Shown: in pieces, positions 4,279-33,865 of the stretch | Layout of the letters: each line of letters opens with the position of its first letter | How positions within the stretch are numbered: position 1 is the first letter of the stretch | Source of the DNA: a virus | Taxonomy: Duplodnaviria > Caudoviricetes | Reading direction: 5' to 3' (one strand) | Length of the DNA stretch: 40,966 bases | Virus record (IMG/VR): IMGVR_UViG_3300032320_000653 | Span: 1 to 40,966 of that record | Notes under the pieces: generated by a model | Database searches by the model: none | What the model was told of the DNA's origin: nothing | Seen by the model: the letters and a program-made list of their open reading frames with translations, nothing else | Position numbers and translations under genes: made by a program

Positions 4279-7200
4279 ATGCCAATCTATTCGATCCAAG
4301 CTCCAGACGGTAAAACCTACGATATTGAAGGGCCGGAAGGCGCAACACGTAACCAAGTTATTGCTGCTGTACAACGGCAACTTAGGCAGCAGCAACCTGA
4401 CCGTGGGATGGAAGAAGCCAATCGGCGGTATGCCGAGGCGCAACGTAGGCTAGCCGAACTTAGCCGCCCACAAGTTGAACCACCAAAGACAACACTTTTT
4501 GGTGCAGGTAAAGAACTCATCAAGGGCTTAGTTCCCGGCGCAGTCGGACTAGGTGAAAGTGCAGCTACCGGACTAGCTGCATTGCTTCCCGATGAACAAG
4601 AGCGAGCCGTTCGTAGCGCGGTGTCAGGTGCGGCTGCACCTGTTAAAGAATTTTTTAAACCCGCCCCCGGCTACGAAGAGTCAGTCTCTCGCAAGTTTAG
4701 TGAAGCCCTTGGTTCCACCCTTCCGTTCCTTGCCGCCGCTCCGTTTACTGGTGGCGCTAGTCTTTTAGGCTTAGGCGCAAGAGCCGGTATTGCAGGACTT
4801 GGAGCCGCTGCTGGTGCTGGTGAAGCTAGACAGATGGCGGAAGCATCTGGGGCAACTAAAGATGAACGCGCTATAGCTACGCTATTAGGCGCACCGGTCG
4901 GTCTTCTTGACATGCTGTTGCCTGAACTCCGGTACGGCAAGACCATGATTACCCGAGCCGCTGTTAGTGGTGGTGTCGAAGGTGCAACTGAAGCCGCTCA
5001 AAGAATTGCTCAGAACGCTATTGCTAAGTATGGGTATAACCCTAATCAGGCGCTGCTTGAAGGTTCCGGCGAAGAAGGTGCGTATGGTGCTGGTGTTGGT
5101 GCAGTTGCTAGTCTGCTTATGGATGCCGCCCTTGGCCGTAAAGGTAAAGGTGCAAAACCAGCCGCAGAGGAAGAGGAAAAGAAGAAGCCGGAAACACTGC
5201 TTCTTGGTAATAAACCAACGCCGTTTACGCCGGTCGTGTTCCCCGATGGTAGTGTTGCTACCTCACCCGAAGACGTAGCAGCTTACGAAAAAGAGCACCT
5301 CAAGAATAAGTTTTCTGCGGCAGCAAATCAACCCGCCGCGCCGGGGATTGCTGGTCTGCTTGAGAACAAACCATTTAAGCCTGTCGTAACTCCTGATGGT
5401 TCGGTTATTACTACACCGGAAGGAGTTAAAGCGTACGAAGAAGAAAAGTACCATGCCCGTAGGCAGCAGGAAGAAGAGGCCAAGCAGCAAGAAGAACAAG
5501 CGTTCAGAAGCAAGTACGCACCCGTAATAAACCAACCCGGACCTGCTGGGCTTCTTGAGAACAAACCGTTTACGCCAATTGTGTACCCTGACGGGTCAGT
5601 TGCTACTACGCCTGAACAAGCTAGACAGCTTGACGAGGGTGCCTACCATCAAGGTAGACAACAAGAAGAAGAGGCCAAGCAACGTGAAGAAGAAGCGTTT
5701 AGAAGTAAATATGCACCTGTAATAAACCAGCCACCGTCTGGAATTGCTGGGCTTCTTGAAGATAAACCAGCCACGCCGTTTAGGCCGGTCGTGTTCCCTG
5801 ACGGGTCGGTTGCTACTACACCAGAGCAACTTGCACAATACGAAGCGCAAACTAAACAGCGCGAAGAAGAGCAGTTTAGGCAGCAGTACGCTCCGCAACC
5901 ATCCGATCAGGCTTTGGCAAACCAAGCTGAAGCGCAACGTCTCGCAGCCGCCGGTCGTGGTCCCAGAGCTACAGGGCAACCGGAACTGCCACTACAAGGT
6001 GGTCAAGTTGCACAGCCTCGGCAAGCTCCTCCGGTTCTTCCGAAGAGAACAGGGTCACAAGGCGTCTTGTTCCCGCAAACTGCGGCTGAACTTGCCCGTG
6101 CTAAGGAAATACCCGCACGTGAACGGCAATCGCTTTCATTCCGTATCAACGATGCGCTGATTAAGTTAACCAGAAACATCCCTTTATCTACCGAAGAAAT
6201 CGCGCTGCTTACACAATACGGAGAAGAGTACAACGTCTCCCCTGAGCAACTACTTACAGCCCGGGTAGCAGGACTGGAACCCGCAGGAGCTAGAAATGCA
6301 GCACCTAATACACCTGTCGCTCCAGCAACTGGAGCTAGCACTAGCGTACCTAGCAAACCCCAAGCAAACGCGGCCCCCGCTGGAACTAGCGCACCTGCAT
6401 CCAGCGCAGTGGCGACACCTGCAACTCCTGCTGGACCAACTGGAACTGGAGCGACAGCACAGCCCAATCCACTAAGTACAGACGCGGAGACTTTGGCAGC
6501 GTTAAAAGCACTTGTACCAGCAGACTTACACAGTAAGTTGGATGCGGCTAACGCTGAAACTTTTGCTCCTCCTAAAGCTCCTAAAGCACCTAAAGTTCCT
6601 AAAGCCCCCGCCGCTACCGAAACCGCTGCGCCTAAACCCGAAGCTAAGAAGGGAACGCCGGAGGCAGAAGCTAAGACGGAAGCCAAGACGGAAGCGCCAA
6701 AGGTAGAAAAAATTGAAACTCGTAGGGATGCGTTTACGTATGGAAGCCCCTCAAACCGAACGGGCACGTATACTTTTGTCGTTTTGTCTGACGGTAGCAA
6801 ACATGCCATAGGTAGAAAAACTGCACAAGACGGGGAGATGGCTGGTTGGCATGTCCTAGACGGTTCTCTTCTTGAGGCTATACAGAACGATCCATACGAC
6901 GTATCCACTTGGTTAGGCGATAATAGAGAAGCTGCCCTCAAAGAGTTACCGGAAGAATATCAACGTCGGGTACTCAATAGAGCTAAACCGGAAACTAAAA
7001 CCGCCACCGCGCCTAAAACTCCTGCTGCTCCTGCTGCTCCTGCTGCTACCGCGCCTAGACCTAGAACTGCCAAAGCACAAGCTAAAGCCAATCTTGACGC
7101 TGCACTATCTGACCTTGGGGACATTCTTGGGTTTACTACAGCACCTGCTACAGACACCACAACTACGCCAACTGGCAAAGGTGACCTCAAGAAATTTGAT

Positions 7201-10200
7201 CAGGCGCAGAAAGCCAAACTGATTCCTACGCTTGTTAAGTTGTTTGATGCGGCGTTGGATATGGGCATGGTTACCTTTAAGGAATCAGTCCTGCACGTAA
7301 AGCAAGCAATCAACGCACGCTTTGGTCGTGACGCCGTTCGGGCTATCTTTGAACAAGAAGGAAGTCAGGCACTGATTCGGGAAGCCTACGATCTGCATCA
7401 GGAACAACGGCAAGAACGGGAAACAGCGGAAGCTCCCGAAGCCGAAGCGCGTCAAGAAATCGAGGAAGAAGAAACTACTGGTGAAGAAGAAGCAGTAAGC
7501 GCGTGGCAAGAACTAGCTACTCCTAGTGCTCGGGCCTTCCACGATCAAATCAGTCATGCGTACAGGATGTATGACGCTAAGGAAGTAGGGGACGAAACAT
7601 CACAAAAAGCTGACCGTGCCAAGGTCCAAGGGTTGCTACGTAAAAACCGGGACAACCCACAGACAAACTACTTCTCCAAGATGCAGCGGCTGGTGGATAA
7701 CCTTCGTAACATTGCATTTGACATAGCATTCCCATTTGGTGATCGGCGAGCCGAAACCAAAGAAGGTCAGATTGGGGAGATAATAGAAGTACTTGGCCGA
7801 TACAAGCGGTCGGTCGGTGAAACTACGCCTGAAGCTAACTTCTTCAGCGGTATGGGGCACGATGCTGCTAAGAAAGCAGCGGAATGGGTTTACGGCAACC
7901 TCAGCCTACCCGCCCAAGTCAAGCTGCAAAAGATGATTGCCGAATACACGGCACAGAATACTGCTGTAGGTCAAGCCCACTTCATTCAGACAATTCTGGA
8001 TCGCGGTCGTGGTCGGGCAGACAACGCCAAAGACGAGCAAAAGTTTCAAGAGGGAGTGCTTGAGGCGAAGAAGGATGAAGATATCGACGAGGCATTGGCT
8101 AAGGTCGAACGCAGCCGTGATATTAGAGCCGCTGAAGCACGTATAAAGGAAGAAAACCGTAAGGCAAATGAGTTAGAGCAGTTGCGGGAAAAAGTAGAAC
8201 GCGAAAAGAAGAAACGGAAAACCGAGGACGAAGTTCTCGACGCGATCTTTGGCCCCGCTGGTGCTTTTATCAAGAAGTTCTCGCAAGACATGAGCGCCCG
8301 TCTGGGCTTGCCATTGCATCCGGCAGTGCAAGGTATGTTGATGGATGGCAACCTCAAGGGTGCGCTTGATCATCTCGCCGTTAACAATGGAAATGTTACG
8401 GGCAAGATTGCTGGTTTCCTGAGCCGCACAACAGGCACGACCAAGGTTGAAGTTACTGACAATCTGGTCGATGAGGCAGGTAAGGCGATCCCCGGTTACT
8501 TCGATCCCGAAACCAACACGGTTCATCTTGACTCGGTTCGGGGGATGAACGCTCACGTGCTATTGCATGAAGTAACGCACTCGGCCTTGTCTCACGAACT
8601 AGACAACCCGTCCAGCCCACACACCCGTCAAATCACCAAGTTGTTCAATGATCTCAAGCCTTTGCTTGGTGATCTTTATGCCGCCCAAGACGTACATGAG
8701 TTCACGTCTGAAGCGTGGAGCAACATGGCGTTCCGGCAACGTCTTAACTCCATCACCGTTTCCGGTGAGAAACAAACCGCGTGGGATCGGTTTACCAACA
8801 AGGTTGGAAACTGGCTTCGTTCTAAGGTTGGGTTGGAAACCAAACCGTTGGAAGAGACTGCGTTGTCAGCAGCAGACCGATTGATTGAAACAATCATGTC
8901 GCCCTCGCCAGAAACTCGCAACGTAGGTGTGCTGTACAAAGCGGCTGCTACTGGCACAGGGGCTAAAGTTGTAGCTAAAGCGTTCGGTGATTACGGTAAG
9001 TTCTCGACCAGACGCCCCGGCGCAGCGCGTAACGCCATGCAGTTCTACCAGAGTGCCAAGGAAGGATTCTTCAACGGCTTGTATCGGTTTGCTGACCTGC
9101 AAACTCTGGTCGATGTTGCTAAGGGTAAAGTCCCAGAAGCACAAAAAGTACTCGACACGATCCGGGCCAAGGCTCGCTACCAAGACGAATCAATACGTGC
9201 GTTAAAACCCGTAGTTAGTAAAGCTGCTAACTGGGCCAAAGGCGCATCCGCCGAAACCTACGAGCGTTTCAATAAAGTTGTTTACGGTAGCACCCTGTCG
9301 CAAGTCGATCCAACTAACCCACGCAGTACGTACGAGAAAAGCTCGGACCCAAAGAAAGCAAAAAACTTTGATCCGGAAAAACTGAAAGAGTACGACCGGA
9401 TTAAACCCGACTACGATGCGCTTAAAGACAGCGGCGGTCAGGAAATCTACAAGCTGATGCGTAATGCGTACCGGGAGTTGTACAAGAAGATCGAAGACGA
9501 GATCGGTAACCGTATTGACGACGCGGTGAAAGACAAGGATGCCGCTAAAAAACTTAAAGAGAACATCTTTAAGAAGCTGGTTGATCGTGGTGGGCTTGAG
9601 CCTTACTTCCCCCTAGTACGTAAGGGTAAATACCGGTTGTCGTACAACGCGGACGGGGAAGTCTACATCGAGCACTTTGAAAATAAGGCTGACCGTGACG
9701 CTGCAATAAAAGAACTAAACGAGATGGGTGCTACGGAGATCTCCCCGTTCCTAAGCATATCCGAAAAAACGTACAGGAAAGCCCCGCCATCTTCATTCGT
9801 CAATCAGATCCTTACGACGATGGAAGCCCAGAAGGTTGATCCTGCTGTCATTGAAAGCGTGATTGATTTGTACCTCAACACGATGCCGGAAACGTCATTT
9901 GCTCGGGCGTTCCATGCTCGGCAAGGCACGCTGGGCTTTAAGCAGGATGCAGTTGCGGCTATGCAGGAGAAGGTGTTCAGTACCTCCGCGCAGATTGCCA
10001 ATATTAAGTATTCCTCTATTCTCGGCAAACTAGACACAGAGTTACAGGAGTCGCTCAAGAAAAAGCAGACCGACGAAGATGCGGTGTATTTGGGTCAACA
10101 GCTTCGGGATCACATCTCTGAAAGCATGAACCCAACTCAACTATCTACCGCCTCCCGCCTTGCTGCCGGTGCAACTTACGCTTATACGCTTGGGTTTAAC

Positions 10201-11781
10201 ATATCTTCCGCACTGATTCAGGTCGCGCAGCTACCGATTGTCGTGTACACCAATTTTGGTGGGAAGTACGGCTACGCCCAAACGGCTATTGAGATGACCA
10301 AGGCAATCGCTACCTTCTCATCCACAGGGTTTAGCCGTAAGGCAAGTACCACCGTGCCGCTGAATGGCTCGACGTTGAAAGAAGGCGAGAAAGGCGAGTC
10401 GATTACTATCCGTGGGTTGCCGTCCTTGGACAACGTGGACTTCGACAAGGTTCCAAAAGGTTCCCCGCTTAAATCGCTTGAAACACTAGCCCGAGTTGCA
10501 CGTAGCCAAAATGCTCTAGCGCGTTCTGGCTTGTATGATATTTTTGATGCGGGTCGCTCTGACGGAATAGTTGCACAGATGTCAGGTCTAGCCGGTCTGC
10601 CATTCCATATGATGGAGCGATTCAATCGACAGGTGTCGATGATCACCGCATACAACCTAGAGTTGAAGCGGCTCGATTCGGACAAGGCTACCGACGCCGA
10701 AAAGAAAATGTCTCAGCAGGAAAAGGAAGAGTTTGCAGCTAACCAAGCAATCTACCTGTCTGACTTGACCAACGGTGGCAACGGGCAAGAGACTGCATCA
10801 CTACTGTCCCGGCAAAGTGAGATCGGCCATGTCACGACAATGTACAAACGCTATGGCGCGTCCATGTACAGGTATTTGTTTAAGACGATGAAAACTGCAT
10901 ATGCGGATGCAGACCCACAAGAGCGTGCAATTGCCCAGAAACAGATCGTGGGTGTTGTCGGCATGTCTGCGTTGCTAGCCGGTGTGCAGGGTGTTCCGAT
11001 GTTTGACATCGCCGCTGCCGCTTACAACATGCTCAAAGATCCAGATGATGATGACTTTGAAACGGAAGTCCGCAAGGCTATCGGTGAGGCTTACTACAAG
11101 GGACTGCTTACTCACCTGACTGGTTCCGAGATCGGTTCGCGGATCGGCTTTAATGGGTTGCTGTATCGCGCTCCACGGTTTGCTCAGTGGTCCGATGATC
11201 CTATTAAAGCAGCGGTTGAGAGTCTGGGTGGTCCGGCCTTTGGTGTTGCCCAACGTATTTTTGATGGCGCTAAGAAAGTAGCGGAAGGGGAAGTCGAGCG
11301 TGGTATTGAGCAGATGCTGCCAACCTTCCTTTCTAACTTATTAAAAGCTAACCGCTACGCTACGGAAGGCTTTAAGACCCTGCGTGGTGACGAGGTATCC
11401 AAGCAAGCAAATGGGTACGAGGTCGCCATGCAGATGATCGGCTTCGCTCCGCAAAGTTATATGGAGCAGATTCAGCAAAACACCGCGCTTAAAGCCAAAG
11501 ACAAGTACGTCACAACGGAAAAGACAAGGTTGTTGCGGCAGCTATACGTAGCGATGCGCGAAAGTGATCAGCGTGAGTACGACGAGGTGATGGAGAAGTT
11601 ACTGAAACTCGGGGAGAAACATCCCGGCACTGTTACTGCTGACACAATCATCAGTTCGCTAAAGGCCAACGCCAAGACTTCGGCTGAGATGTTCCACGGT
11701 ATTACCTTAAGTAAGGCAATGCGTGCCGAGCTTATGGAAGATGCTTCGGAGTACAGCTTCTCTGATGACGAGCTAGATTAA
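4279..11781 (+). CDS. Giant internal virion / large polyvalent protein (zincin-like HExxH domain, PLxRFG-like C-terminal region)
   Basis: 2500 aa; Gly/Ala hydrophobic N-terminal helices, internal repeats, GYFDP...LLHEVTH...HEF (8566-8580) and YFPLVRKGKY (about 9604-9633); last gene of the + strand structural arm. Confidence 0.7.
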   Translation: MPIYSIQAPDGKTYDIEGPEGATRNQVIAAVQRQLRQQQPDRGMEEANRRYAEAQRRLAELSRPQVEPPKTTLFGAGKELIKGLVPGAVGLGESAATGLAALLPDEQERAVRSAVSGAAAPVKEFFKPAPGYEESVSRKFSEALGSTLPFLAAAPFTGGASLLGLGARAGIAGLGAAAGAGEARQMAEASGATKDERAIATLLGAPVGLLDMLLPELRYGKTMITRAAVSGGVEGATEAAQRIAQNAIAKYGYNPNQALLEGSGEEGAYGAGVGAVASLLMDAALGRKGKGAKPAAEEEEKKKPETLLLGNKPTPFTPVVFPDGSVATSPEDVAAYEKEHLKNKFSAAANQPAAPGIAGLLENKPFKPVVTPDGSVITTPEGVKAYEEEKYHARRQQEEEAKQQEEQAFRSKYAPVINQPGPAGLLENKPFTPIVYPDGSVATTPEQARQLDEGAYHQGRQQEEEAKQREEEAFRSKYAPVINQPPSGIAGLLEDKPATPFRPVVFPDGSVATTPEQLAQYEAQTKQREEEQFRQQYAPQPSDQALANQAEAQRLAAAGRGPRATGQPELPLQGGQVAQPRQAPPVLPKRTGSQGVLFPQTAAELARAKEIPARERQSLSFRINDALIKLTRNIPLSTEEIALLTQYGEEYNVSPEQLLTARVAGLEPAGARNAAPNTPVAPATGASTSVPSKPQANAAPAGTSAPASSAVATPATPAGPTGTGATAQPNPLSTDAETLAALKALVPADLHSKLDAANAETFAPPKAPKAPKVPKAPAATETAAPKPEAKKGTPEAEAKTEAKTEAPKVEKIETRRDAFTYGSPSNRTGTYTFVVLSDGSKHAIGRKTAQDGEMAGWHVLDGSLLEAIQNDPYDVSTWLGDNREAALKELPEEYQRRVLNRAKPETKTATAPKTPAAPAAPAATAPRPRTAKAQAKANLDAALSDLGDILGFTTAPATDTTTTPTGKGDLKKFDQAQKAKLIPTLVKLFDAALDMGMVTFKESVLHVKQAINARFGRDAVRAIFEQEGSQALIREAYDLHQEQRQERETAEAPEAEARQEIEEEETTGEEEAVSAWQELATPSARAFHDQISHAYRMYDAKEVGDETSQKADRAKVQGLLRKNRDNPQTNYFSKMQRLVDNLRNIAFDIAFPFGDRRAETKEGQIGEIIEVLGRYKRSVGETTPEANFFSGMGHDAAKKAAEWVYGNLSLPAQVKLQKMIAEYTAQNTAVGQAHFIQTILDRGRGRADNAKDEQKFQEGVLEAKKDEDIDEALAKVERSRDIRAAEARIKEENRKANELEQLREKVEREKKKRKTEDEVLDAIFGPAGAFIKKFSQDMSARLGLPLHPAVQGMLMDGNLKGALDHLAVNNGNVTGKIAGFLSRTTGTTKVEVTDNLVDEAGKAIPGYFDPETNTVHLDSVRGMNAHVLLHEVTHSALSHELDNPSSPHTRQITKLFNDLKPLLGDLYAAQDVHEFTSEAWSNMAFRQRLNSITVSGEKQTAWDRFTNKVGNWLRSKVGLETKPLEETALSAADRLIETIMSPSPETRNVGVLYKAAATGTGAKVVAKAFGDYGKFSTRRPGAARNAMQFYQSAKEGFFNGLYRFADLQTLVDVAKGKVPEAQKVLDTIRAKARYQDESIRALKPVVSKAANWAKGASAETYERFNKVVYGSTLSQVDPTNPRSTYEKSSDPKKAKNFDPEKLKEYDRIKPDYDALKDSGGQEIYKLMRNAYRELYKKIEDEIGNRIDDAVKDKDAAKKLKENIFKKLVDRGGLEPYFPLVRKGKYRLSYNADGEVYIEHFENKADRDAAIKELNEMGATEISPFLSISEKTYRKAPPSSFVNQILTTMEAQKVDPAVIESVIDLYLNTMPETSFARAFHARQGTLGFKQDAVAAMQEKVFSTSAQIANIKYSSILGKLDTELQESLKKKQTDEDAVYLGQQLRDHISESMNPTQLSTASRLAAGATYAYTLGFNISSALIQVAQLPIVVYTNFGGKYGYAQTAIEMTKAIATFSSTGFSRKASTTVPLNGSTLKEGEKGESITIRGLPSLDNVDFDKVPKGSPLKSLETLARVARSQNALARSGLYDIFDAGRSDGIVAQMSGLAGLPFHMMERFNRQVSMITAYNLELKRLDSDKATDAEKKMSQQEKEEFAANQAIYLSDLTNGGNGQETASLLSRQSEIGHVTTMYKRYGASMYRYLFKTMKTAYADADPQERAIAQKQIVGVVGMSALLAGVQGVPMFDIAAAAYNMLKDPDDDDFETEVRKAIGEAYYKGLLTHLTGSEIGSRIGFNGLLYRAPRFAQWSDDPIKAAVESLGGPAFGVAQRIFDGAKKVAEGEVERGIEQMLPTFLSNLLKANRYATEGFKTLRGDEVSKQANGYEVAMQMIGFAPQSYMEQIQQNTALKAKDKYVTTEKTRLLRQLYVAMRESDQREYDEVMEKLLKLGEKHPGTVTADTIISSLKANAKTSAEMFHGITLSKAMRAELMEDASEYSFSDDELD
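5197..5900 (+). repeat. Four imperfect ~50-67-aa repeats (LLENKPFxPVVxPDGSVATTPE...FRSKYAP) within the giant protein
   Basis: PDGSV(A/I)T(S/T)PE occurs four times in the translation with conserved flanks. Confidence 0.9.
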
Positions 11782-11785
11782 GGGC

Positions 11786-11823
11786 AAAAAAATCCCCCGA
11801 AGGCGTGGCCGCACAGTCGGGGG
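11786..11823 (-). terminator. Intrinsic terminator ending the minus-strand arm
   Basis: CCCCCGA (11794-11800) / TCGGGGG (11817-11823) stem, with A7 at 11786-11792 giving a U-tract on the - strand; lies between convergent arms. Confidence 0.75.
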
Positions 11824-11850
11824 TAATACCTTGGAGGAGACACACGAACA
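11786..11850 (-). ncRNA. Candidate ~65-nt small RNA with seed UCUCCUCCAAGGUA complementary to the shared early-gene leader ACCUUGGAG
   Basis: - strand reads ...GTGTGTCTCCTCCAAGGTATTA followed by the terminator hairpin; promoter-like elements upstream; no start codon follows the GGAGGAG on the + strand. Confidence 0.5.
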
Positions 11851-11856
11851 GGTTTC

Positions 11857-11885
11857 ACTGTATCACAGTTTTCTCCAGATGCGAA
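11857..11885 (-). promoter_or_regulatory. Putative sigma70 promoter for the candidate sRNA
   Basis: TTCGCA (11885-11880), 17 bp, TACAGT (11862-11857), preceded by extended -10 TGn. Confidence 0.45.
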
Positions 11886-12099
11886 GCCCTAAAATTTTGC
11901 CCTCGACCCGACGCCGCGTCTCTACTTCCCACTTCTTACGTTTGGCGATATCAAGGATCTGCTCCTTGAGCTTTAAGTGATTGATTGCTGGTACAAAAAT
12001 AGACGATCCAACAATAAACTTATCCCATTCGACCTTGATAACAAGGCCGTCTGGATCTAAATCGTCAAGCCAAAATCTACCCTGCGCCACTGCCGCCAT
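11863..12099 (-). CDS. Small hypothetical protein downstream of the primase
   Basis: 78 aa, overlaps the primase 3' end; basic C-terminus ending LGLRIWRKL. Confidence 0.65.
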   Translation of the reverse strand: MAAVAQGRFWLDDLDPDGLVIKVEWDKFIVGSSIFVPAINHLKLKEQILDIAKRKKWEVETRRRVEGKILGLRIWRKL

Positions 12100-14995: not shown

Positions 14996-15925
14996 TCAAT
15001 CGTCCCAATCGCCTACGATATCACTCATATCAATAGCTTCCGCTTGGGGGGCGGTGCTAGTCTTCTTGCTAACAACCTTCTTGGGTTCTTCAACCTCTTC
15101 GTCTTCCTCAACCTTTGGCTTGGCCTTTGTCTTGGGTTCCGGCTTAGTTTCCGGCTTAGGTTCAGCATTGTTGAACAACGAGGGAGTCGGCTCAGGAATG
15201 ACTTTATCCATCTGCGATACATTGAGCTTCAGGTACCGCTGAGTCTCAGGAGCGTCCCGCAACTCCAACGCAATATCTAACTCGGCATCATCCAATGGAC
15301 GCACCGGCTTGAATACCAGCTTAGGCGTAGGGCTGTTGCTATCAAAACGCATCTCGGTCACGATACCAATCGCCTTCTCACCGTGAGCTTTGAGATGACG
15401 GGCATACGCTTGCAACGGCATTTTGCCGCCATGCTCAGATGGGTCGCCAAAAATACTTGTTGGCGGAAGAGTCAACTGATAGACCTCACGATTCTCAATT
15501 GCACCTTCAAAGATAATAGCAATGCGCTGTTGGGGCTTACATGCTTTGCTTTCATTCTGACCCGAACCCTTGATTGCTTGGCGGCAATCCATACAACGAG
15601 CAGACTGCTTCTGATCATCCGGCACTGACTGATCTGGGACTTGCGAATCTGAAGACCAGCAAGTGGGCTTTACCGGCTTGCCTTTGACATACGCTTCGGC
15701 AAAGTACATCTTGGAAATAGGAGCGGCGTTAATAATAACTACGTTAGTAGCACGCTCCTCGTTGACCCGGACTTCCTTGCCGTTAATGACTTCACGGAAC
15801 AAGTTACCTTCAAGACTGATGCGTCGGTTGACGTTGCCAGCATTTACATTGTCAGTGATGGCATCCGCAACATCAGCGAGGCGGGCAGAGGAGCGGCGAT
15901 TTCCGAATAGGGATAGTTCGTTCAT
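14996..15925 (-). CDS. Putative single-stranded DNA-binding protein
   Basis: 309 aa, beta-rich core with CWS...CMDC...CK cysteines, Lys/Glu/Pro linker and acidic tail (DIVGDWDD); lies in the replication module; SD GAGG. Confidence 0.6.
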   Translation of the reverse strand: MNELSLFGNRRSSARLADVADAITDNVNAGNVNRRISLEGNLFREVINGKEVRVNEERATNVVIINAAPISKMYFAEAYVKGKPVKPTCWSSDSQVPDQSVPDDQKQSARCMDCRQAIKGSGQNESKACKPQQRIAIIFEGAIENREVYQLTLPPTSIFGDPSEHGGKMPLQAYARHLKAHGEKAIGIVTEMRFDSNSPTPKLVFKPVRPLDDAELDIALELRDAPETQRYLKLNVSQMDKVIPEPTPSLFNNAEPKPETKPEPKTKAKPKVEEDEEVEEPKKVVSKKTSTAPQAEAIDMSDIVGDWDD

Positions 15926-15932
15926 GGTTACC

Positions 15933-16226
15933 TCAAAGGTTTACGTCAACATTATCTTCAGCAAAAAAATCAAGTACAAGCTGTTCCATCTCAGGACTAA
16001 GCTCGGCCTTGGGCGGGGGCGGGGGCGGCAAGGGATCGGGTTCCGGTACTGACTTCTGTGGTTTGAAGTGGTTGATGATCGCGTCCTTGTCGAATCGGTA
16101 AGTATTGCCGATCTTAACGTATGTGTCACCCGGAATAAGTCCTGTCCGAACCCAACTCCTTACCGTCGTAACCGACACGGTGAGCGTCCGTGCTAGATCT
16201 TCGATTGGTACAAATCGCAACGTCAT
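15933..16226 (-). CDS. Excisionase/MerR-like helix-turn-helix protein
   Basis: IEDLARTLTVSVTTVRSWVRTGLIP...KIGNTYRF matches the Xis/HTH_17 pattern. Confidence 0.8.
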   Translation of the reverse strand: MTLRFVPIEDLARTLTVSVTTVRSWVRTGLIPGDTYVKIGNTYRFDKDAIINHFKPQKSVPEPDPLPPPPPPKAELSPEMEQLVLDFFAEDNVDVNL

Positions 16227-25389: not shown

Positions 25390-25425
25390 GTGTGGTAGGT
25401 AACTGGCATCTAAATATGGATGGTG

Positions 25426-25713
25426 TTAGGGAGTCCCTAACAGGATTGAATAAACTGAATCGACGTTCTCCTCGTTAATAACTAGGGCTATCCCCCCAGT
25501 CAATATGATCTGCTCAAGATTAAGGGCCTGTAATGGGGTCGGCTTGTTGGTCCCGGCCTTGCACTCAATCCCAAAAAACTTTCCCTTGTAACAGCCTACT
25601 ATGTCAGGCACACCGGACCGGCCATACCCCCCGGTGACGGGGTAGAAGTAATAGGCGTCCAACAACTTTAATTGCTGGACTACCTTCTTCTTGACCTTAG
25701 CCTCGGGAGTCAT
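25426..25713 (-). CDS. VRR-NUC domain nuclease (putative Holliday junction resolvase)
   Basis: TPEAKVK, GVPDI, GIECKA, PTPLQ, GGIALVI. Confidence 0.9.
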   Translation of the reverse strand: MTPEAKVKKKVVQQLKLLDAYYFYPVTGGYGRSGVPDIVGCYKGKFFGIECKAGTNKPTPLQALNLEQIILTGGIALVINEENVDSVYSILLGTP

Positions 25714-26090
25714 ACACCTACGAAATCACGCACACGTTCCCATAACGTGAGCTTGCGAGGGGGAGAGGCTTGCTCCGTAACCGTAAACACATACGTAGGG
25801 GGGTGGGGGTATGGGTATGCGTTATGCGCGGGGTCGGGCAGTGGCACAAACGGAACTTGATCCGTCCCTACTACTTTCTTCTTCCTCAAGCTACCAATAC
25901 CCGCCGCTTTATTGTCTTGCCAGCGAACGTGATACACGTAGTTAGCTGATACCTTAGCCTTGGCCGCGATCTCGGCAACGGGCATACCCATACCCAATAA
26001 CTTACGCACTCTAGTCGCCTTGGTCTGGCGCTTGTATGCGCGCTTCGGCTTGGTTGCTACTACTTCTGTCTGTTCATTTGTCGTGTTCAT
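25710..26090 (-). CDS. Putative HTH DNA-binding protein
   Basis: KATRVRKLLGMGMPVAEIAAKAKVSANYVYHVR; start at ATG 26090. Confidence 0.6.
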   Translation of the reverse strand: MNTTNEQTEVVATKPKRAYKRQTKATRVRKLLGMGMPVAEIAAKAKVSANYVYHVRWQDNKAAGIGSLRKKKVVGTDQVPFVPLPDPAHNAYPYPHPPTYVFTVTEQASPPRKLTLWERVRDFVGV

Positions 26091-26326
26091 TTGTGTACCC
26101 AAAAAATATGTTCTTCGATTCGTCGTCCTAATCCTGCCACGTCTATTGTGGGTGGCTTAGATGAGAACGTGCTTAGTACGTGCAGCTTATCCTGCACCCA
26201 TTTCGGCAATGCTTCTATTGATTCATATACACCTTCCTGTAGTGGATCCATGTCAAGGGCATAACAAAGGGACTCCACGTGGGCATGTCCCTTGTCATCG
26301 AATTCAACTCGATAAGTTATTGTCAT
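26087..26326 (-). CDS. Hypothetical protein similar to the C-terminus of the upstream 353-aa protein
   Basis: LPKWVQDKLHVL...VAGLGRRIEEHIFWV; ATGA overlaps. Confidence 0.7.
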   Translation of the reverse strand: MTITYRVEFDDKGHAHVESLCYALDMDPLQEGVYESIEALPKWVQDKLHVLSTFSSKPPTIDVAGLGRRIEEHIFWVHK

Positions 26327-27384
26327 GTAGTGCTATCGCTCTCCAGTTCCTCAATGTAAAACAAATTATTTGCAACCTTGTACCCGATGTTTGGCACGTA
26401 CTGGTTAATGTCTAGCGTGTCAGCCACAGCCAACTTGCCAAGCAACCACGCCGGAACCTCGTGCTCTGCAATCCAAGTCGTAAGCGTCATGTTCTTGTCC
26501 TCCCACGTCGCATCCGGCATAGTCCACACACCGTTATGTTCAACATGTGGGATACGTGCCCCTTTATATGTAGGACCGCGCTCCTTTACTTGGACGTACA
26601 CGCACCACGTCACCTTACAACGATTTGCTGCTTGAGCGTATTCTTTTTTGCGTTCTGCCACCATTTTAATATTCTCGTACCACGTCACATCCTCGGGCTT
26701 GCGATCACTCTCGGCCTGTCCGTTCAAGTAAACTTCCAATGCGGGTAGCGTAGTAGATACTAGCTGGTCGGTGATGCGGTTCAGCTCCGAAACCTCTAGC
26801 CTGTTATAACCATGCTTACCAAACAAAGAGATTACCCGCGCCTCTCGCAAGTTATGATCTGCCAAGTCAACATCAACTTCTTGGTGTCTTATCAGACCCT
26901 CCCTGAAGTGCTTGCCCATCTCTAAGGCATTGTGCTGTAGCAGGTACGTGTTGGCATTTACAATTGCTACGTCTAACTTTTCTGTAGCAACCATTAGATG
27001 TTGGGCTTTGTCCTTGGTGAACTTGTTGTTGGCAATGCGACGGGACGCAATCGTATATCGGTTCCGGCCTTCCCCCTTCACTGATCCCCAAGCACCGTAG
27101 CCGATTACGCCACGTGCAAACGGTTCGCCCTCGTAGTACACGTATACGTACGCATAGGGACCATCTGATTTAGGGAAGTATGGGAGAAACTTCGCACTCT
27201 TACTCTGGCGTTTGAATGCACGGACGAATTCGCAGGTACGGGTGTGTGCGTTGAACGTACCAAGCTCAGTCGTTATCCAATGTCCGTCCATTGGTAATGC
27301 CGGTGTAGATGCAAAGTAGATCTTGGCTTGCCGCTCGATATCTTCCACTCTCATCCACAATGCTGCTTCTAATGCTGTCGTCAT
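26323..27384 (-). CDS. Hypothetical early protein
   Basis: 353-aa ORF preceded by the palindrome and the ACCTTGGAG leader. Confidence 0.8.
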   Translation of the reverse strand: MTTALEAALWMRVEDIERQAKIYFASTPALPMDGHWITTELGTFNAHTRTCEFVRAFKRQSKSAKFLPYFPKSDGPYAYVYVYYEGEPFARGVIGYGAWGSVKGEGRNRYTIASRRIANNKFTKDKAQHLMVATEKLDVAIVNANTYLLQHNALEMGKHFREGLIRHQEVDVDLADHNLREARVISLFGKHGYNRLEVSELNRITDQLVSTTLPALEVYLNGQAESDRKPEDVTWYENIKMVAERKKEYAQAANRCKVTWCVYVQVKERGPTYKGARIPHVEHNGVWTMPDATWEDKNMTLTTWIAEHEVPAWLLGKLAVADTLDINQYVPNIGYKVANNLFYIEELESDSTT

Positions 27385-27441
27385 GTCATTACTCCAAGGT
27401 TGTTAGGGACGCCCTAACAAGGCGTCCACTTATCTATTTAA

Positions 27442-27624
27442 TTACAACGTAACCGGCTCAGTCTGCTCGACCTCAATCACATAGCCCAATCGTTTGATCA
27501 AGTCGATGGTCATTGAAGTCAGGGTCGAATGCCCTGCAATACGGGCAAACAACTTAGCATCATCACACACAGGGTATACGGTACGGTTCCCGTATACGTT
27601 CCTCACTCTGACTACTATCTTCAT
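27442..27624 (-). CDS. Small hypothetical phage protein
   Basis: Start moved to ATG 27624 (SD GGAGG); VRNVYG...YPVC..AKLFA.IAG..TLT...IKRLGY. Confidence 0.75.
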   Translation of the reverse strand: MKIVVRVRNVYGNRTVYPVCDDAKLFARIAGHSTLTSMTIDLIKRLGYVIEVEQTEPVTL

Positions 27625-27625
27625 C

Positions 27626-27865
27626 TCATGGCCTCCCATCTTTGCCAACCCAACCCATGCCAACGTAATCACTAGGATCTTCGTGGTAGTGAGCATTCAA
27701 CACCATGTGTACGCTATAGGCGTTGCCGCTCCTACTCATACCCTGTGCTTCTGCATACGCATGGGCCTCCTTCTCGTCATCGAATAACCCGTACACCTGC
27801 ACGGGTTCGTGCTTGAAGAAATTTAAGATCACCCACTTGCCTGTTTCTTCACTGTTCTCGTTCAT
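27626..27865 (-). CDS. Hypothetical protein
   Basis: 79 aa, SD GGAGG. Confidence 0.65.
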   Translation of the reverse strand: MNENSEETGKWVILNFFKHEPVQVYGLFDDEKEAHAYAEAQGMSRSGNAYSVHMVLNAHYHEDPSDYVGMGWVGKDGRP

Positions 27866-27866
27866 C

Positions 27867-28019
27867 TCACACCTCCGTTGCGTCTAGTTCAGCAACCGCG
27901 TCCTTCACCATCTGCGGTGTCAGTGCGACTAGCCAGTCTGTTACCATGTCCAGATACGCTGGGTTCTCTATCAAGAACACCAACTCGTAACGTATTACTT
28001 TGCGTTTATCTTCGTCCAT
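27867..28019 (-). CDS. Small hypothetical protein (50 aa)
   Basis: Start at ATG 28019 after SD GGAGGT, 1 nt after the vWA gene stop. Confidence 0.6.
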   Translation of the reverse strand: MDEDKRKVIRYELVFLIENPAYLDMVTDWLVALTPQMVKDAVAELDATEV

Positions 28020-28020
28020 C

Positions 28021-29361
28021 TCACACCTCCACATGTACGGTGCGGCCCACGGTCGGAGTCGCACTCGGGTTATCTGCAATCGCCCACACCACGGGACAGG
28101 GCCACGTACCCCATCCGGCATAGAGATCACCATCTGTTAAGACAATCGCAACGTCGGGCTTGATCCCATACTGTTGCATGTACTGTGTTACGCAGTTCAC
28201 ATCCGTACCCCCGCCACCCTTGGGCTTAGTACACTTGACGATATCCTGCACCTCACTACCTCGATACACCTCCTCACTACATACCTCCGTGTCCCAGTAG
28301 ATGACACGTACTACTTCTGGCTTGATAGCTGCTGCAATCTTCGCCATTTCCCCCAGAAAGACAGACTGCAAGGAATCTCCGATACTGCCTGACATGTCAT
28401 TTGCAATGACCATCTCCTTGATGGTCTGACTGTACGTGCTAGGCATATACACGTCCTCCATCTCGCCATTGACCTCGACCTGCTGACCCATGAACCTACG
28501 GTTGGGACGCACCCACGTCTGATACTCAGTACCCGGACACATAGCCGTAAGGATCTCGCGCAACTCGTCTTCCCACCGGACCTTGGACTGCAAGATGTCC
28601 TTGATCACACGACTACCACCCGTCCCTGCTTTGCTAGCCATAAGCTCAGTCTCACGCAAGGCCGTGTCGATCTGCTCCGCTAGTTCCTCTTGCTCCTGCT
28701 TGGTTAGTTCTTGGGCACCTTCCCAATCGTGCTCGTCGAACCCTTGTTGCTTGTCCTTATGCTTGGGCTTGCTTGGTTTGCCTTGTCCGGGTTGTGTTTG
28801 CCCCCCGTCCTCGCCGTCCTCTCCATCCATGTCTTGCTCGCCATCGCTTGGCTTGCCGCTATCTTGTTCATTACTTGGAGTGCCTTCATCCGTCCCTTCG
28901 GCATCTTCTTGCTCCTGTTCTTGCTCCTTGCGAAGCAACTTGTAGATTTGCTTGCTGTTCAAGCCAGCGAACCGCTCGTCCAACATCCCGCCCTTGGGCA
29001 TCACGATCCACCCATCCGTACCGTAGTCGTTGGTCAACCACAAATTAAGATAGTAGTCACAAGCACGGTTGGCACAATCGGGGTCCTCCTCGTGAAGCTC
29101 TGACCAAGTAGTCAGATGTTGCAACATCTTGTGCCCCACCTCGTGCATGATCAGGAACCGCAACTCGGGATCGGACAGAGACTTGACGAACGCCCGCCCA
29201 TACCACTCGTCCCGGCCATTCGTTCGTGCAGTCGGGCAGTCCTCGACTACCTCCTTCTTACCGATCTGTAAGACACCACGGAACTCGGGTGCTTTCTCAA
29301 GGATGTCACCGCACGCCTTCTTGACGCGCTGCTCCTCAGTTAGTTTAGCGAAGATACTCAT
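28021..29361 (-). CDS. DUF2201-type HExxH metallopeptidase-like domain + vWA domain protein
   Basis: PTARTNG, HEVGH, NRACD, acidic linker, MIDAS DMSGS, GGGGTD, LTDG. Confidence 0.88.
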   Translation of the reverse strand: MSIFAKLTEEQRVKKACGDILEKAPEFRGVLQIGKKEVVEDCPTARTNGRDEWYGRAFVKSLSDPELRFLIMHEVGHKMLQHLTTWSELHEEDPDCANRACDYYLNLWLTNDYGTDGWIVMPKGGMLDERFAGLNSKQIYKLLRKEQEQEQEDAEGTDEGTPSNEQDSGKPSDGEQDMDGEDGEDGGQTQPGQGKPSKPKHKDKQQGFDEHDWEGAQELTKQEQEELAEQIDTALRETELMASKAGTGGSRVIKDILQSKVRWEDELREILTAMCPGTEYQTWVRPNRRFMGQQVEVNGEMEDVYMPSTYSQTIKEMVIANDMSGSIGDSLQSVFLGEMAKIAAAIKPEVVRVIYWDTEVCSEEVYRGSEVQDIVKCTKPKGGGGTDVNCVTQYMQQYGIKPDVAIVLTDGDLYAGWGTWPCPVVWAIADNPSATPTVGRTVHVEV

Positions 29362-29434
29362 GTCATTACTCCTTGGTTGTTAGGGATTCCCTAACTGGGT
29401 ATCCCTTCGTGTTGTTTAGTTTAGTCGTGTTCTG

Positions 29435-30541
29435 TTACTGATCCTTACGGAGCATGTAAGCATTCTTCAATGCCCATGCCGTATACCCGGGGCTTGTGAC
29501 CACGATTTGCTGCCGCTTCTCGTCATACGACTTGGCAGTCACACCCTTGCTGAACATCGCCTGCTCTTCCTCGGGCAAGCGTCCAAGGTATGTCATCCAA
29601 GGATCAATGAACTCACGGTCCACCATGCCCAACACTTTCGTGATGATCATGCACCGTACTGCCTGAGACGTAGGAACCTTGGCAGTCATTGGGTCTGCTT
29701 TAATGGATGCAATGGTCGGCATCTGCTGACTTGTCTTGTACCAAATCAGTAGGCCAGCGGCGGCATCGGGTCCGAAAGTGCCTGTCAACGCAGCAATAAG
29801 GGTTTGCTGATCGATAAGATCGGGGTTCTCCTCTGCTTCAATGAGGATGTCAGATGCAGCATGGATAGAGCGACCCGTACAGAACGATTCGCGTTGCTGT
29901 TTTGGGTGAAAGATATACGGGTTATCTTTCGGGTCCTTGACCTCATCGAAGTCGGCGAACACTTGGGGCGTCTCGTTTACCCACCTCGTAACAGCAGGGT
30001 GAATACCCGCATTGATTGCGAAGTGCTCGATCCACTCCTCTGCTGTAGAGGTGCGGGTTTCAATGATTATGATTCGATTCCTAGCATGGGCAGGAATCAA
30101 GTCACCGAGTCCTTCGCTTGCCTTGTTAGTGGTAGCAAACAAGATGGTGTCCTTGTGCAACTCGATACCACCCGGGCCGATACGCTCAAGCATCAGACGA
30201 AGCATGCCCTTGAGCACCCCCGGGTCGGCCTTGCCGAGTTCGTCGATCATGAGTATGAGGGGTTTACGCAAGTGGAGGCCAAGCTCCTCGTGAGGTACGA
30301 ACGTAACGTACCCTTGTGAGTCAATGCTTGCCATGCGAGGCATAGACAAGTCCCCGGGCATCTTGGTGGTGCAATCGAAATACACCATCAGGTGGTTGGG
30401 GTAACGCTTGCCAAGCGTTTTCAGGGTTGACGATTTGCCCGAACCCATCGGGCCGCGCAGGAGGACCGTGCGCTTCTTGCCCATTACGGCGATGAAGTTA
30501 GATGCTTGCAGAAGGGAGAGCTTGTTAGCGAAAGCGTTCAT
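29435..30541 (-). CDS. MoxR-like AAA+ ATPase
   Basis: Walker A GPMGSGKS, Walker B MIDE, sensor-1 ATTN, ARNR; start at ATG 30541 after CCTTGGAG; adjacent to the vWA gene. Confidence 0.88.
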   Translation of the reverse strand: MNAFANKLSLLQASNFIAVMGKKRTVLLRGPMGSGKSSTLKTLGKRYPNHLMVYFDCTTKMPGDLSMPRMASIDSQGYVTFVPHEELGLHLRKPLILMIDELGKADPGVLKGMLRLMLERIGPGGIELHKDTILFATTNKASEGLGDLIPAHARNRIIIIETRTSTAEEWIEHFAINAGIHPAVTRWVNETPQVFADFDEVKDPKDNPYIFHPKQQRESFCTGRSIHAASDILIEAEENPDLIDQQTLIAALTGTFGPDAAAGLLIWYKTSQQMPTIASIKADPMTAKVPTSQAVRCMIITKVLGMVDREFIDPWMTYLGRLPEEEQAMFSKGVTAKSYDEKRQQIVVTSPGYTAWALKNAYMLRKDQ

Positions 30542-30631
30542 GTGAAACTCCAAGGTAAAAATAAATATAAGTAAGCAAACAAGGAACAAACAGGGAGTTT
30601 GTTAGGGACTCCCTAACCCAAAACAAAACAA

Positions 30632-31549
30632 TCAATTAAAGTCAATGCTCGGCAGATCACGGATGATCTGATCGACACCACGCTTCACGTCATCACGCAC
30701 TAGCGGGTCGTGCTTCAACGCATCGACCGAAACACCATCGAGCATGTCCTCGATCTTGCGTCGCAAGCTCGCAATCTGGGAGTCTTCGCCTAGACCGAAG
30801 ATGTCAGCCATAGGCAGGATGTCCAAGACATTGGACAAGATGTTGCTGTGCATGCGCTTGCCGTTAGACTTCTCGCCCTCGGGTGCAGGGACAAGTTTGG
30901 ATGAGATGTTAGATAGAGCGGCGACAAGACGGTCCTTGAAGTCGCCTACCATGTTGCCGATAAGCTCCTGATAGTGCCGCTCGTACTGCTCCTTTTGCTC
31001 GACCAACGCTTGGTTGTTGATGTCGATGCGCCAGTCACCCGCTTCGGGCATGTTGCACGTACGAATCTCAATGCTGAACTTGCGACGCATCTCGTCCAAG
31101 CTGAAGTAGTCTGCCGCGTTGTACAGGTCACCGAGTTTGATCGGTGCTTGCGACAACTCCCACTCGTACACGTCGAAGAACGCTTCGCACAGGCGCTTGT
31201 GCTCGGCAAGCTCGGGGTCCATCTTGTCCATGTAACGTGTTAGCCCCATCGTAGGCATAGCGCGAAGCTCGCCCATCCAGTCGAACGTCAACTCGTAGTG
31301 CAACAAGCGAGCACGTGCAATGTGCTTCTTGATAGCGTCAAGCTCCGCGCAGTTGGGGAGCAACTTCTTGCTCACAGTTGCCGAACCGGTTTCGGCATTG
31401 TTTCTGGACGTTACGTCTGCCGTAGCAGACTTATCCTTGACAGTACCCTGCCAGTAGCTAGCCTTGAAGATCACCAACATCCCGCTCCGTGCGAGGGAAG
31501 GGAATTTAACGTCGGCGGGTTTCGCAAGGGTCATATTCAAACAGTTCAT
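30632..31549 (-). CDS. DUF3150-like protein
   Basis: MLV...SYWQG..KD...SKKLL pattern, helical C-terminus, position next to the MoxR/vWA pair; start at ATG 31549. Confidence 0.55.
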   Translation of the reverse strand: MNCLNMTLAKPADVKFPSLARSGMLVIFKASYWQGTVKDKSATADVTSRNNAETGSATVSKKLLPNCAELDAIKKHIARARLLHYELTFDWMGELRAMPTMGLTRYMDKMDPELAEHKRLCEAFFDVYEWELSQAPIKLGDLYNAADYFSLDEMRRKFSIEIRTCNMPEAGDWRIDINNQALVEQKEQYERHYQELIGNMVGDFKDRLVAALSNISSKLVPAPEGEKSNGKRMHSNILSNVLDILPMADIFGLGEDSQIASLRRKIEDMLDGVSVDALKHDPLVRDDVKRGVDQIIRDLPSIDFN

Positions 31550-31566
31550 ATCAAGCTCCAAGGTTT

Positions 31567-31670
31567 GTTAGGGTTTCCCTAACTTGATTTCGTTTCGTCG
31601 GTCTGTCCAGTGGGCGAATTCCCACTGAACATATATTATACCACAGTCTGTCGTGAAAGTCAATGTTTCC
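31567..31670 (-). repeat. ~100-bp promoter-hairpin-palindrome direct repeat, copy B
   Basis: 36-nt identity (31608-31643 vs 32153-32188), 16-nt identity (31655-31670 vs 32200-32215) and a shared palindrome. Confidence 0.92.
31635..31663 (-). promoter_or_regulatory. Strong sigma70-type early promoter (copy B)
   Basis: TTGACT (31663-31658), 17 bp, TATAAT (31640-31635) with extended TGn. Confidence 0.9.
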
Positions 31671-31813
31671 TAACGGATAGGTAAAAAGACACACTTACCC
31701 ACATCGCACCCACCGAGCAATCCTTCAAGGAACAGGATGCCCAACAGGGTGACGAGAGCGTAAGCGGCAGTTACTAGCACCAGCATCTTGGCGAACTCTT
31801 TCCATGTATTCAT
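31670..31813 (-). CDS. Small putative membrane protein (47 aa)
   Basis: Manually translated: MNTWKEFAKMLVLVTAAYALVTLLGILFLEGLLGGCDVGKCVFLPIR*; SD AGGAG; one hydrophobic helix. Confidence 0.7.
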   Translation of the reverse strand: MNTWKEFAKMLVLVTAAYALVTLLGILFLEGLLGGCDVGKCVFLPIR

Positions 31814-31849
31814 TGCGTTACTCCTAGTTGGTTAGATGGTTAGGGTGAA

Positions 31850-32086
31850 TTAAAGAGTGGGTATGAACTTGGGGTTGAGTTGCTTGAGCATGGTGCGGTC
31901 GCTGATAAGCATGTAGTTGGATTTGGACATCGGTGCGACCGTGAAATTCACGGCGTTCGCCAACTCCTCCCCGCATGGGAGGCAAGTGCGGTATCCGATT
32001 GCCTTGCGCTTGGGCGAGAAGTTGTCGCCGCATACACGGCAGACGGGACGGATTTTGAACTCGGTGTTCTTAACTGCGTTTTTCAT
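31850..32086 (-). CDS. C4 zinc-finger protein (loosely DksA/TraR-finger-like)
   Basis: CRVCG...R...CLPC (C-x2-C-x15-C-x2-C); ACCTTGGAG leader. Confidence 0.75.
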   Translation of the reverse strand: MKNAVKNTEFKIRPVCRVCGDNFSPKRKAIGYRTCLPCGEELANAVNFTVAPMSKSNYMLISDRTMLKQLNPKFIPTL

Positions 32087-32116
32087 AATTACTCCAAGGT
32101 TTGTGTTGCATGTCTT

Positions 32117-32215
32117 GTTAGGGATTCCCTAACTTGGTTTCGGTCGTTGTCTCAGTGGGCGAATTCCCACTGAACATATATTATACCATACTATGGTACG
32201 AAAGTCAATGTTTCC
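32117..32215 (-). repeat. ~100-bp promoter-hairpin-palindrome direct repeat, copy A
   Basis: Matches 31567-31670 as described for copy B. Confidence 0.92.
32180..32208 (-). promoter_or_regulatory. Strong sigma70-type early promoter (copy A)
   Basis: TTGACT (32208-32203), 17 bp, TATAAT (32185-32180) with extended TGn. Confidence 0.9.
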
Positions 32216-32376
32216 AGATGGGGTGTTCAGTTCTGTTATCAGGGGTGGTGTGGGTGTTGAGTTTCTTGAAGTACGTATGCACCTTTCGTGATTTGGGGTG
32301 GTAGCGGTGTGTGGTTTGGTGATAGCTATGTGGTGTCGGAGTAGACTGTTCCATACTGTTCCGTTGGGGGGGTCTG

Positions 32377-32389
32377 CAAGTCCTTGATT
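32377..32389 (-). promoter_or_regulatory. IHF consensus site
   Basis: - strand AATCAAGGACTTG fits WATCAANNNNTTR, with an A/T-rich 5' flank. Confidence 0.5.
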
Positions 32390-32704
32390 TTAAATATTGT
32401 TCCAATATCGCAAAAGTTCGTTTCATAGGAGCGGGATCTTGGGAAAAAGTTGTGGAGGGTGAAAAGCGAACATTGCCCGGGGGTGGGGGGCAGCGGCGTC
32501 CCGTAGTCAAAAGTACCTCTACGTCAAACCGAACTTTCAGTACAATATAGTTTAGTTTAGTTTATTATCTATTTATATTCAAAAAACGGGTGATTTCCTG
32601 CAATTCCCACACCACCACTAAGTCGGATTTGTCACGAAACATATTGTTCCTGATGTGTTCGTTTTTTGGTTTTGGAAACCGAACAGTTGCCGTGGTGGGC
32701 GACC

Positions 32705-32886
32705 CGCTGCTCTTGTAACTGGCTTCACTTTGTTAGGGCGTTCCCTAACAAAAAATGAAACAGCGTTCCACTTACACCTGACTGTCAGAAACCACATAAG
32801 CCATACCACATAGCTGTCACTAAACCACACATGGGCGGCACGCTGCTCTTGTAACTGGCTTCTTTTTTGTTAGGGAGTTACCTAAC
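32705..32886. repeat. Direct repeat CGCTGCTCTTGTAACTGGCTTC, each copy followed by a palindrome
   Basis: Exact 22-mer at 32705-32726 and 32841-32862. Confidence 0.92.
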
Positions 32887-32978: not shown

Positions 32979-32996
32979 TGTGCGAAAACGCGGACG

Positions 32997-33253: not shown

Positions 33254-33268
33254 GTTAACTCCAAGGGT

Positions 33269-33815: not shown

Positions 33816-33865
33816 GATGGATTCTCCAAGGTTGGCATTAGATGTTAGGGGACTCCCTAACATCA

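Follow-up and report, generated by a model that had tools for sequence, protein, structure and literature searches.

The window, by which we mean the whole stretch of 40,966 nucleotides that was analysed (IMG/VR record IMGVR_UViG_3300032320_000653), is a 66%-complete virus record built of two convergent arms. The minus strand carries the early and replication genes, among them those for an AAA ATPase, a DUF2201 protein, a DNA polymerase, an exonuclease, a helicase, and a DUF927 primase, and the plus strand carries the structural genes, including terminase, portal, GroES, and a 2500-aa internal protein. The C-terminal part of this 2500-aa protein (4279-11781, plus strand) resembles DarB-type antirestriction families. 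Short tandem repeats of the GGCTGGCT/GGTC type lie at the point of divergence that precedes the terminase arm (33980-34030), and CTACGCCAGC-type tandem repeats lie at the end of a 311-aa structural gene (about 2230-2280).

No close cultured relative of the window was found; the best terminase match was to HTVC023P-type phages (44-46% identity), and the primase reached at most 28% identity over most of its length against cultured phages (phage Rollin). The layout of HTVC023P is different from that of the window, and Rollin has no gap between its convergent genes, which overlap. Metagenomes are rich in kin of the window, with contigs of up to about 66 kb, and we estimate that IMG/VR holds about 730 stretches with the junction pattern and about 3500 with the primase pattern. 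The link to a host comes from MAG binning only, which points to Methylopumilus, several alphaproteobacteria, and others.

The two arms meet at an 81-bp gap (11782-11862) between the stops of the 2500-aa plus-strand ORF (end 11781) and a 78-aa minus-strand ORF (end 11863) that matched no Pfam or PHROG family. The original prediction had read the minus strand of this region as TTCGCA, a 17-bp spacer, TACAGT, a seed, a GC stem, and U7, and every one of these elements was found in its place, with 17 bp separating TTCGCA (11885-11880) from TACAGT (11862-11857). These features and the leader words discussed below are collected in Table 1.

Table 1. Positions of the gap elements and of the complementary leader words in the window
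Feature	Position	Strand	Remark
Weak -35 hexamer TTCGCA	11880..11885	-	Within the last codons of the 78-aa ORF
Extended -10 box TGTG-A-TACAGT	11857..11867	-	Contains the TGA stop of the 78-aa ORF
Predicted sRNA, about 65 nt	11786..11851	-	Start site placed from the -10 box
5' segment UGUUCGUGUG	11841..11850	-	Predicted to span the start codon in duplexes with the best targets
Seed UCUCCUCCAAGGUA	11827..11840	-	Anti-SD core plus lineage-specific flank
Intrinsic-terminator-like GC hairpin and U7	11786..11823	-	Stem 11823-11817 with 11800-11794; T7 at 11792-11786
78-aa ORF	11863..12099	-	Final ORF in the replication arm, with the putative promoter embedded in its end
Target word	27392..27400	-	7 nt upstream of start 27384 (353-aa gene); duplex -22.3 kcal/mol
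Target word, 10 bp	30548..30557	-	6 nt upstream of start 30541 (AAA ATPase gene)
Target word	31556..31564	-	6 nt upstream of start 31549 (305-aa gene); duplex -22.8 kcal/mol
Target word	32092..32100	-	5 nt upstream of start 32086 (a 78-aa gene); duplex -18.4 kcal/mol
8-bp target word	33259..33266	-	5 nt upstream of start 33253 (70-aa gene); duplex -17.7 kcal/mol
Target word	33824..33832	-	8 nt upstream of start 33815 (164-aa gene, the first of the early genes); duplex -19.8 kcal/mol
Possible extra target, imperfect pairing	15920..15940	-	Leader of the 309-aa replication-arm gene (start 15925)

TTCGCA is the commonest hexamer at the -35 place in kin (20/70) and is partly fixed by the G-x-R codons of the protein. 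Boxes of the type TRTG-n-TAnnnT occur three times on the arm strand of the window, namely in two early promoters with a near-consensus -35 and in the gap, and the early promoters of kin are of the same type as the extended -10 box of the gap. The two early promoters of the window (32208-32180 and 31663-31635, minus strand) are strong and near-identical (TTGACT, 17 bp, extended TATAAT), and the same short hairpin lies downstream of both. A generic scanner called neither the gap promoter, which has 8 of 12 consensus matches at a cut-off of 9, nor the gap terminator, which has a 16-nt loop at a limit of 3-8.

The terminator folded better than expected (z -3.0; 0/200 shuffles as good), and it alone exceeded the shuffles, the whole 75-nt RNA folding no better than they did (z -0.98). 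In the predicted window RNA, the seed had an unpaired probability of 0.74-0.79 and no stable 5' hairpin was formed. No minus-strand ORF of at least 45 aa was listed in the 81-bp gap.

Conservation of the unit at the junction

A protein search returned 109 loci; dropping 29 that lacked the ORF-end motif and 10 that were short or duplicated left 70 distinct loci, which include about a dozen close relatives of the window. The first base past the stop codon of the last small ORF was T in 63/70, the second was A in 66/70, and the base at +6 was T in 54/70, indicating that the core of the TRTG-n-TAnnnT box is conserved outside the coding sequence; the stop itself was TGA in 59/70. Together with the rarity of the extended -10 box on the arm strand of the window, this conservation upholds, at the sequence level, the earlier proposal that the RNA has its own promoter. 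TCTCC was present downstream in 53/70 loci (10.3 expected), and its complement GGAGA in 4/70. The full TAnnnT was absent from 17 of these 70 loci and TCTCC from 17, and some loci (L047, L060, L063, and L308) seem to be without the promoter-seed-terminator unit.

A second set was gathered with a pattern ending at the -10 box (120 loci, 111 of them distinct after nine short or duplicate ones had been dropped). A terminator was found in 104/111; among these 104 loci, 96 had a predicted 5' hairpin and 102 had CUCC, which was predicted to be unpaired in 93. The predicted length of the kin RNAs had a median of 71 nt (range, 55-115). An unpaired seed followed by a terminator, as originally proposed, is predicted in most of the kin loci as well as in the window.

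Read on the other strand, the GGAG opposite the seed could be the ribosome-binding site of a small late-strand ORF running into the replication arm. The window has plus-strand ORFs of 49 and 54 aa over the gap, and 27/111 kin loci have a start codon 5-10 nt after GGAG with an ORF of at least 20 aa. However, such an ORF is missing from the other 84 loci, the frames are split 11/10/10, the plus-strand GGAGGAG of the window has no start codon downstream, and for late transcripts the site lies past the hairpin. We regard this reading as extremely improbable, in line with the earlier view that GGAGGAG is not a ribosome-binding site.

The gap is nearly unchanged in 12 close relatives, and 10 of them keep the seed; in L005 and L006, a CC-to-GA change in the seed leaves only bulged pairing. 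A leader matching this variant seed was found on none of four close early-arm contigs (0/4), which are not linked to L005 or L006. The variant seed is the exact complement of a leader word at 4212 in the distant genome G005, before a homologue of the 305-aa gene, a match that may reflect chance, exchange, or cross-targeting.

RNAalifold gave no real consensus fold on 30 kin RNAs because of misalignment. The named 5' helix reached 81% pairing and included one pair in which both sides changed; the rows had been selected for GACA, however, and shifting by +3 gave an equally high score. The terminator stem was invariant in alignment A3 and thus carries no covariation. In L115, L122, L192, L222, L103, and L165, the terminator has no clear U-run and is followed by a same-strand gene with its own ribosome-binding site, so that in these lineages the RNA may additionally serve as a leader or attenuator. 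A terminator-loop insert like GGTTTCGCACTGCAAC or TTTCCGAG recurs among otherwise different RNAs (L166, L170, L163, L180, and L188; L108, L157, and L129).

Leaders complementary to the seed in the window and in kin

The seed core CTCCAAGGT (11836-11828, minus strand) is the exact complement of ACCTTGGAG, a word with six exact matches on both strands of the window against 0.32 expected; 0/100 shuffles reached six. Five of the copies stand 5-8 nt before early start codons, and one lies reversed at 11828-11836. A leader word complementary to the seed had been claimed for six early genes, and all six carry it, five as ACCTTGGAG and the gene starting at 33253 as an 8-mer. The early leaders at 29361 and 31813 have mismatched versions of ACCTTGGAG.

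Among the 46 leaders of the window, that of the AAA ATPase gene gave the strongest predicted duplex (-28.5 kcal/mol), and the six leaders named in the original prediction took ranks 1, 3, 4, 5, 8, and 9, whereas all 11 late leaders gave -14.2 kcal/mol or weaker. The second-best duplex (-22.9 kcal/mol) was that of the 309-aa gene, whose homologues match the cognate RNA over at least 9 nt in 6/23 cases. The best window duplexes are bipartite, with the seed over the SD and UGUUCGUGUG across the AUG, where the predicted pairing amounts to 9 bp at 30541 and 8 bp at 31549. UGUUCGUGUG is kept in close relatives; family-wide, cognate and non-cognate profiles showed no difference in AUG-spanning pairing.

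The early region has further repeated elements. A 17-bp palindrome, GTTAGGG-N3-CCCTAAC, has eight sites in 25425-33317 (25425, 27402, 29379, 30601, 31567, 32117, 32911, and 33301) against 0.06 expected, mostly just upstream of early leaders, with looser copies near 32740, 32880, and 33850. Kin have lineage-specific palindromes of similar size, and the palindrome set is likely an operator array. Two tandem terminator-like hairpins with U-runs follow the 70-aa early gene (32950-33030, minus strand), and about 700 bp without a clear gene come next.

For the analysis of co-variation, 30 kin records were rebuilt, genes were called by a simple script whose start caller rewards SD-like words equally in all gene classes, and every RNA was scored against the leaders of every genome. 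Twenty-five of 31 genomes were scored, after G010 (no junction) and the near-twins G006, G046, G029, G037, and G041 had been dropped. In permutation tests that treat genomes as exchangeable, relatedness being handled only by de-duplication and a pair test, the own RNA outscored other RNAs on early leaders (z 5.5, n = 21) and on replication-arm (middle) leaders (z 8.3, n = 25), and there was no signal on late leaders (z -0.1, n = 22). With early and middle leaders combined, z was 8.5, and the own RNA came first in 12/25 genomes and among the top three in 17/25. Duplex energies agreed with match scores in the own-versus-other matrix, and the control scores were z 2.1 (sense), 1.8 (reversed), and 1.0 (complement-only).

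When the GGAG core was set aside, the two flanks still co-varied (z 4.3 and 5.8), and late leaders were not significant. In 12 disjoint nearest pairs, own exceeded cross in 10 (in one by only 0.04), one pair was tied, and one favoured cross. The result was replicated in independent loci found by protein search only (z 9.3, n = 24, first rank in 13/24); these 24 were what remained of 83 loci examined after 53 without a junction or 5 kb upstream and six duplicates had been dropped. Co-variation had been put forward as a check of the original prediction, and the seed does track each phage's own leaders, in the 25 genomes and in the 24 independent loci. The prediction had, however, limited the targets to an early regulon, switched off once replication genes are on, and this part is not supported as it stood: in kin, the match to the cognate RNA is at least as strong for replication-arm leaders as for early ones, and the predicted target set is therefore the non-structural arm.

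Conspicuous matches between the RNA and own leaders span 15 nt in G035 and G002 and 13 nt in G012, G021, and G043. In L436 and L475, the seed is altered to GCUCCU and the own leaders read AGGAGCAA; in L435, L450, L466, and L303, the seed lies in the loop of a 5' hairpin and the own leaders read ACAGGAGAAU. GGAGA is present in 62/176 early, 158/397 middle, and 55/521 late leaders (35-40% versus 11%). A perfect match of at least 9 nt to the own RNA was present in only about 12% of arm leaders, against 4% for other RNAs. The recurrent targets in kin are the 133-aa and 288-aa replication genes, the helicase, the ATPase, and the 353-aa family, and the polymerase, exonuclease, and primase leaders seldom match the own RNA. 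Matches of at least 8 nt were scarce among the arm leaders of the weak genomes (G009, 0/26; G039, 1/26; G005, 1/29).

These data also bear on whether the gap is a bidirectional terminator only, the reversed word being a DNA-level site or a by-product of leader homogenisation without a functional RNA. Convergent arms need a terminator at the gap, and such a reading would account for the weak, partly protein-constrained -35, for the silence of the generic scanner on a promoter, and for a whole-RNA fold no better than that of shuffles. It would not account for the conserved -10 bases past the stop, nor for a word that always lies on one strand and in one place, is predicted to be unpaired, and in some lineages is held in a hairpin loop. 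Moreover, matches of 9-15 nt are short for recombination, which counts against homogenisation. A terminator alone is, in our judgement, a very unlikely explanation.

Proposed action of the predicted RNA

The unit is conserved among kin, complementary to leaders, and co-evolving with the early and replication leaders, unlike the late leaders. With a promoter, a terminator, an unpaired seed, and no conserved frame, it has at the level of sequence the features of the class of trans-acting SD-masking sRNAs. Our preferred reading, to which we assign a probability of roughly 0.7, is that the gap unit encodes a host-sigma70-driven trans-acting sRNA that would mask non-structural ribosome-binding sites and spare the structural genes. 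The predicted RNA likely switches off the phage's own non-structural genes by base pairing.

In the proposed mechanism, host sigma70 polymerase would transcribe the RNA from the extended -10 box, which is concealed where the last replication-arm gene ends, and read-through ending at the gap terminator could add to the RNA pool. The unpaired UCUCC core would nucleate on GGAG(A), and lineage-specific flanks would give preference for the own leaders, in the window through AAGGU on the upstream side of the SD and through another segment that spans the AUG. Loading of the 30S subunit would then be blocked, probably with the help of Hfq if the host is a proteobacterium. As genomes replicate, the RNA would build up and could act as an off-switch or damper of early and replication genes toward the late phase.

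The same RNA might be a general anti-SD RNA whose main job is the shut-off of host translation, the matches to phage leaders being a side effect or collateral and the late genes avoiding GGAGA. The invariant part is indeed the SD-complementary core, GGAGA is scarce in late leaders, and the best sub-threshold Rfam match is a betaproteobacterial toxic sRNA, through UGUCUCCU and the terminator. AGGAGA stands before ATG 133 times in MAG G052 versus 46 in the control, mostly off the phage contig, suggesting that weak host targeting is possible. However, the flanks on either side of the core co-vary with the phage's own leaders, and the 11-nt extended word occurs four times in this 2.5-Mb MAG, whose link as a host rests on binning only, and all four are on the phage contig (4/4). 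We therefore consider host shut-off unlikely as the main job.

Pairing of the same kind could also serve immunity, as in the c4 RNA of P1 and P7, by keeping a resident genome quiet or by blocking incoming kin with matching leaders. The lineage-specific seed-leader pairs resemble heteroimmune c4 specificity as the available text of PMC12197685 presents it, a host-type promoter could fire without phage proteins, and the L005 and L006 seeds misfit the leaders of their closest kin. Against this, a scan for PF00589 (tyrosine integrase) and PF00239 (resolvase), with the large serine recombinase family outside it, was negative in all five near-complete kin genomes (0/5), so that a lytic stage switch is favoured over lysogenic immunity, with room left for exclusion of kin. 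In addition, kin with a primase of more than 30% identity were seen on phage-sized or short MAG contigs and not within long chromosomal contigs, and the sRNA gene is located where the replication arm ends, at its distal extremity. An immunity function thus appears improbable.

Accounts of stage switching in phages usually invoke transcription factors, sigma factors, and nucleases. If our preferred reading of an SD-masking sRNA is true, one co-evolving RNA would add a translational layer to stage switching in a large family without detected integrases, and the natural seed-leader pairs would form a ready matrix of cognate and non-cognate combinations.

Comparison with known RNAs and leader words

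An Rfam scan of the window gave no family at the gathering threshold, and the sub-threshold matches reflect the CUCC-plus-terminator shape. Like c4 (Rfam C4, RF01695), the window RNA is phage-encoded and predicted to pair at phage ribosome-binding sites. According to PMC12197685, the c4 RNA of P1 and P7 blocks translation of a phage mRNA by pairing close to its ribosome-binding site, and the specificity of c4 varies among related phages. In that account, c4 has a single target (ant) and belongs to temperate phages, whereas the window RNA matches many leaders 2-22 kb away over a whole arm, in a family of genomes with no detected integrase. Membership of C4 was rejected: there was no match at gathering in the window, none at E<=10 over 11700-11950, and none at E<=1 in 20 kin loci. 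Nor is the antirepressor mRNA of a temperate phage the predicted target, the candidate targets in the window being an AAA ATPase and unknown early genes, and PF00589 and PF00239 were found in none of the five near-complete kin.

The window RNA also resembles RF02278, the Betaproteobacteria toxic small RNAs, in its short length, in UGUCUCCU, and in a GC terminator that ends in a U-run. Membership was again rejected: the gathering score is 50 bits, and the window reached 24.5 bits and none of 20 kin loci more than 27.9. Following Kimelman in 2012, toxic small RNAs reportedly act by masking SD sequences. The RF02278 RNAs are chromosomal and have no co-varying set of phage targets, unlike the window RNA. 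The toxic sRNAs of Burkholderia are 57-92 nt long, have terminators, and are of unknown function, as stated in the accessible text of PMC4603805.

Among phage-encoded RNAs, VpdS (VP882) and PreS (lambda) are trans-acting, seed-based, multi-target, and Hfq-dependent (10.1101/2024.10.31.621285; PMC12197685, both in the portions available). As these portions have it, PreS acts mainly on host mRNAs and VpdS on host and phage mRNAs, and both come from temperate phages; unlike the window RNA, neither is described there as reading a shared leader word of its own phage's non-structural genes. A literature search, outside which lay subscription papers and the table of 38 unassigned phage sRNAs in PMC12197685, returned no description of this sRNA family.

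The closest likeness on the leader side is to the Cluster K phages of Pope et al. 2011 (PMC3203893). In the available text of that study, the SAS is a repeated asymmetric word that overlaps the SD 3-7 bp before starts, is limited to non-structural genes, and often has an upstream inverted repeat (ESAS); subcluster K1 has a single reversed copy away from gene starts, and whether the SAS partner is RNA or protein is left open. The window likewise has a repeated word overlapping the SD at non-structural starts, one reversed copy, and a palindrome array resembling the ESAS repeats. The window word differs from the 13-bp SAS consensus as given there, and the phages are unrelated, the terminase of the window being nearest to HTVC023P-type phages. 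In phage Angelica, we found 17 forward and one reversed SAS site in the 31.6 kb examined. The reversed site (L490:30635-30647) falls within gene 92 as annotated, and a terminator-like hairpin precedes it by about 170 nt; gene 92 may be a miscall and the reversed SAS a candidate anti-SAS RNA.

More broadly, and only tentatively, for we hold it to be possible but rather doubtful, the arrangement could be a general developmental switch in which a lineage-specific barcode surrounds the SD of non-structural genes, one co-evolving sRNA silences that arm, and the structural genes escape. If so, the family of the window would be the largest natural test set for such a switch, what reads the Cluster K SAS would be answered, the lone reversed copy being the RNA, and the Cluster K question would become directly testable.
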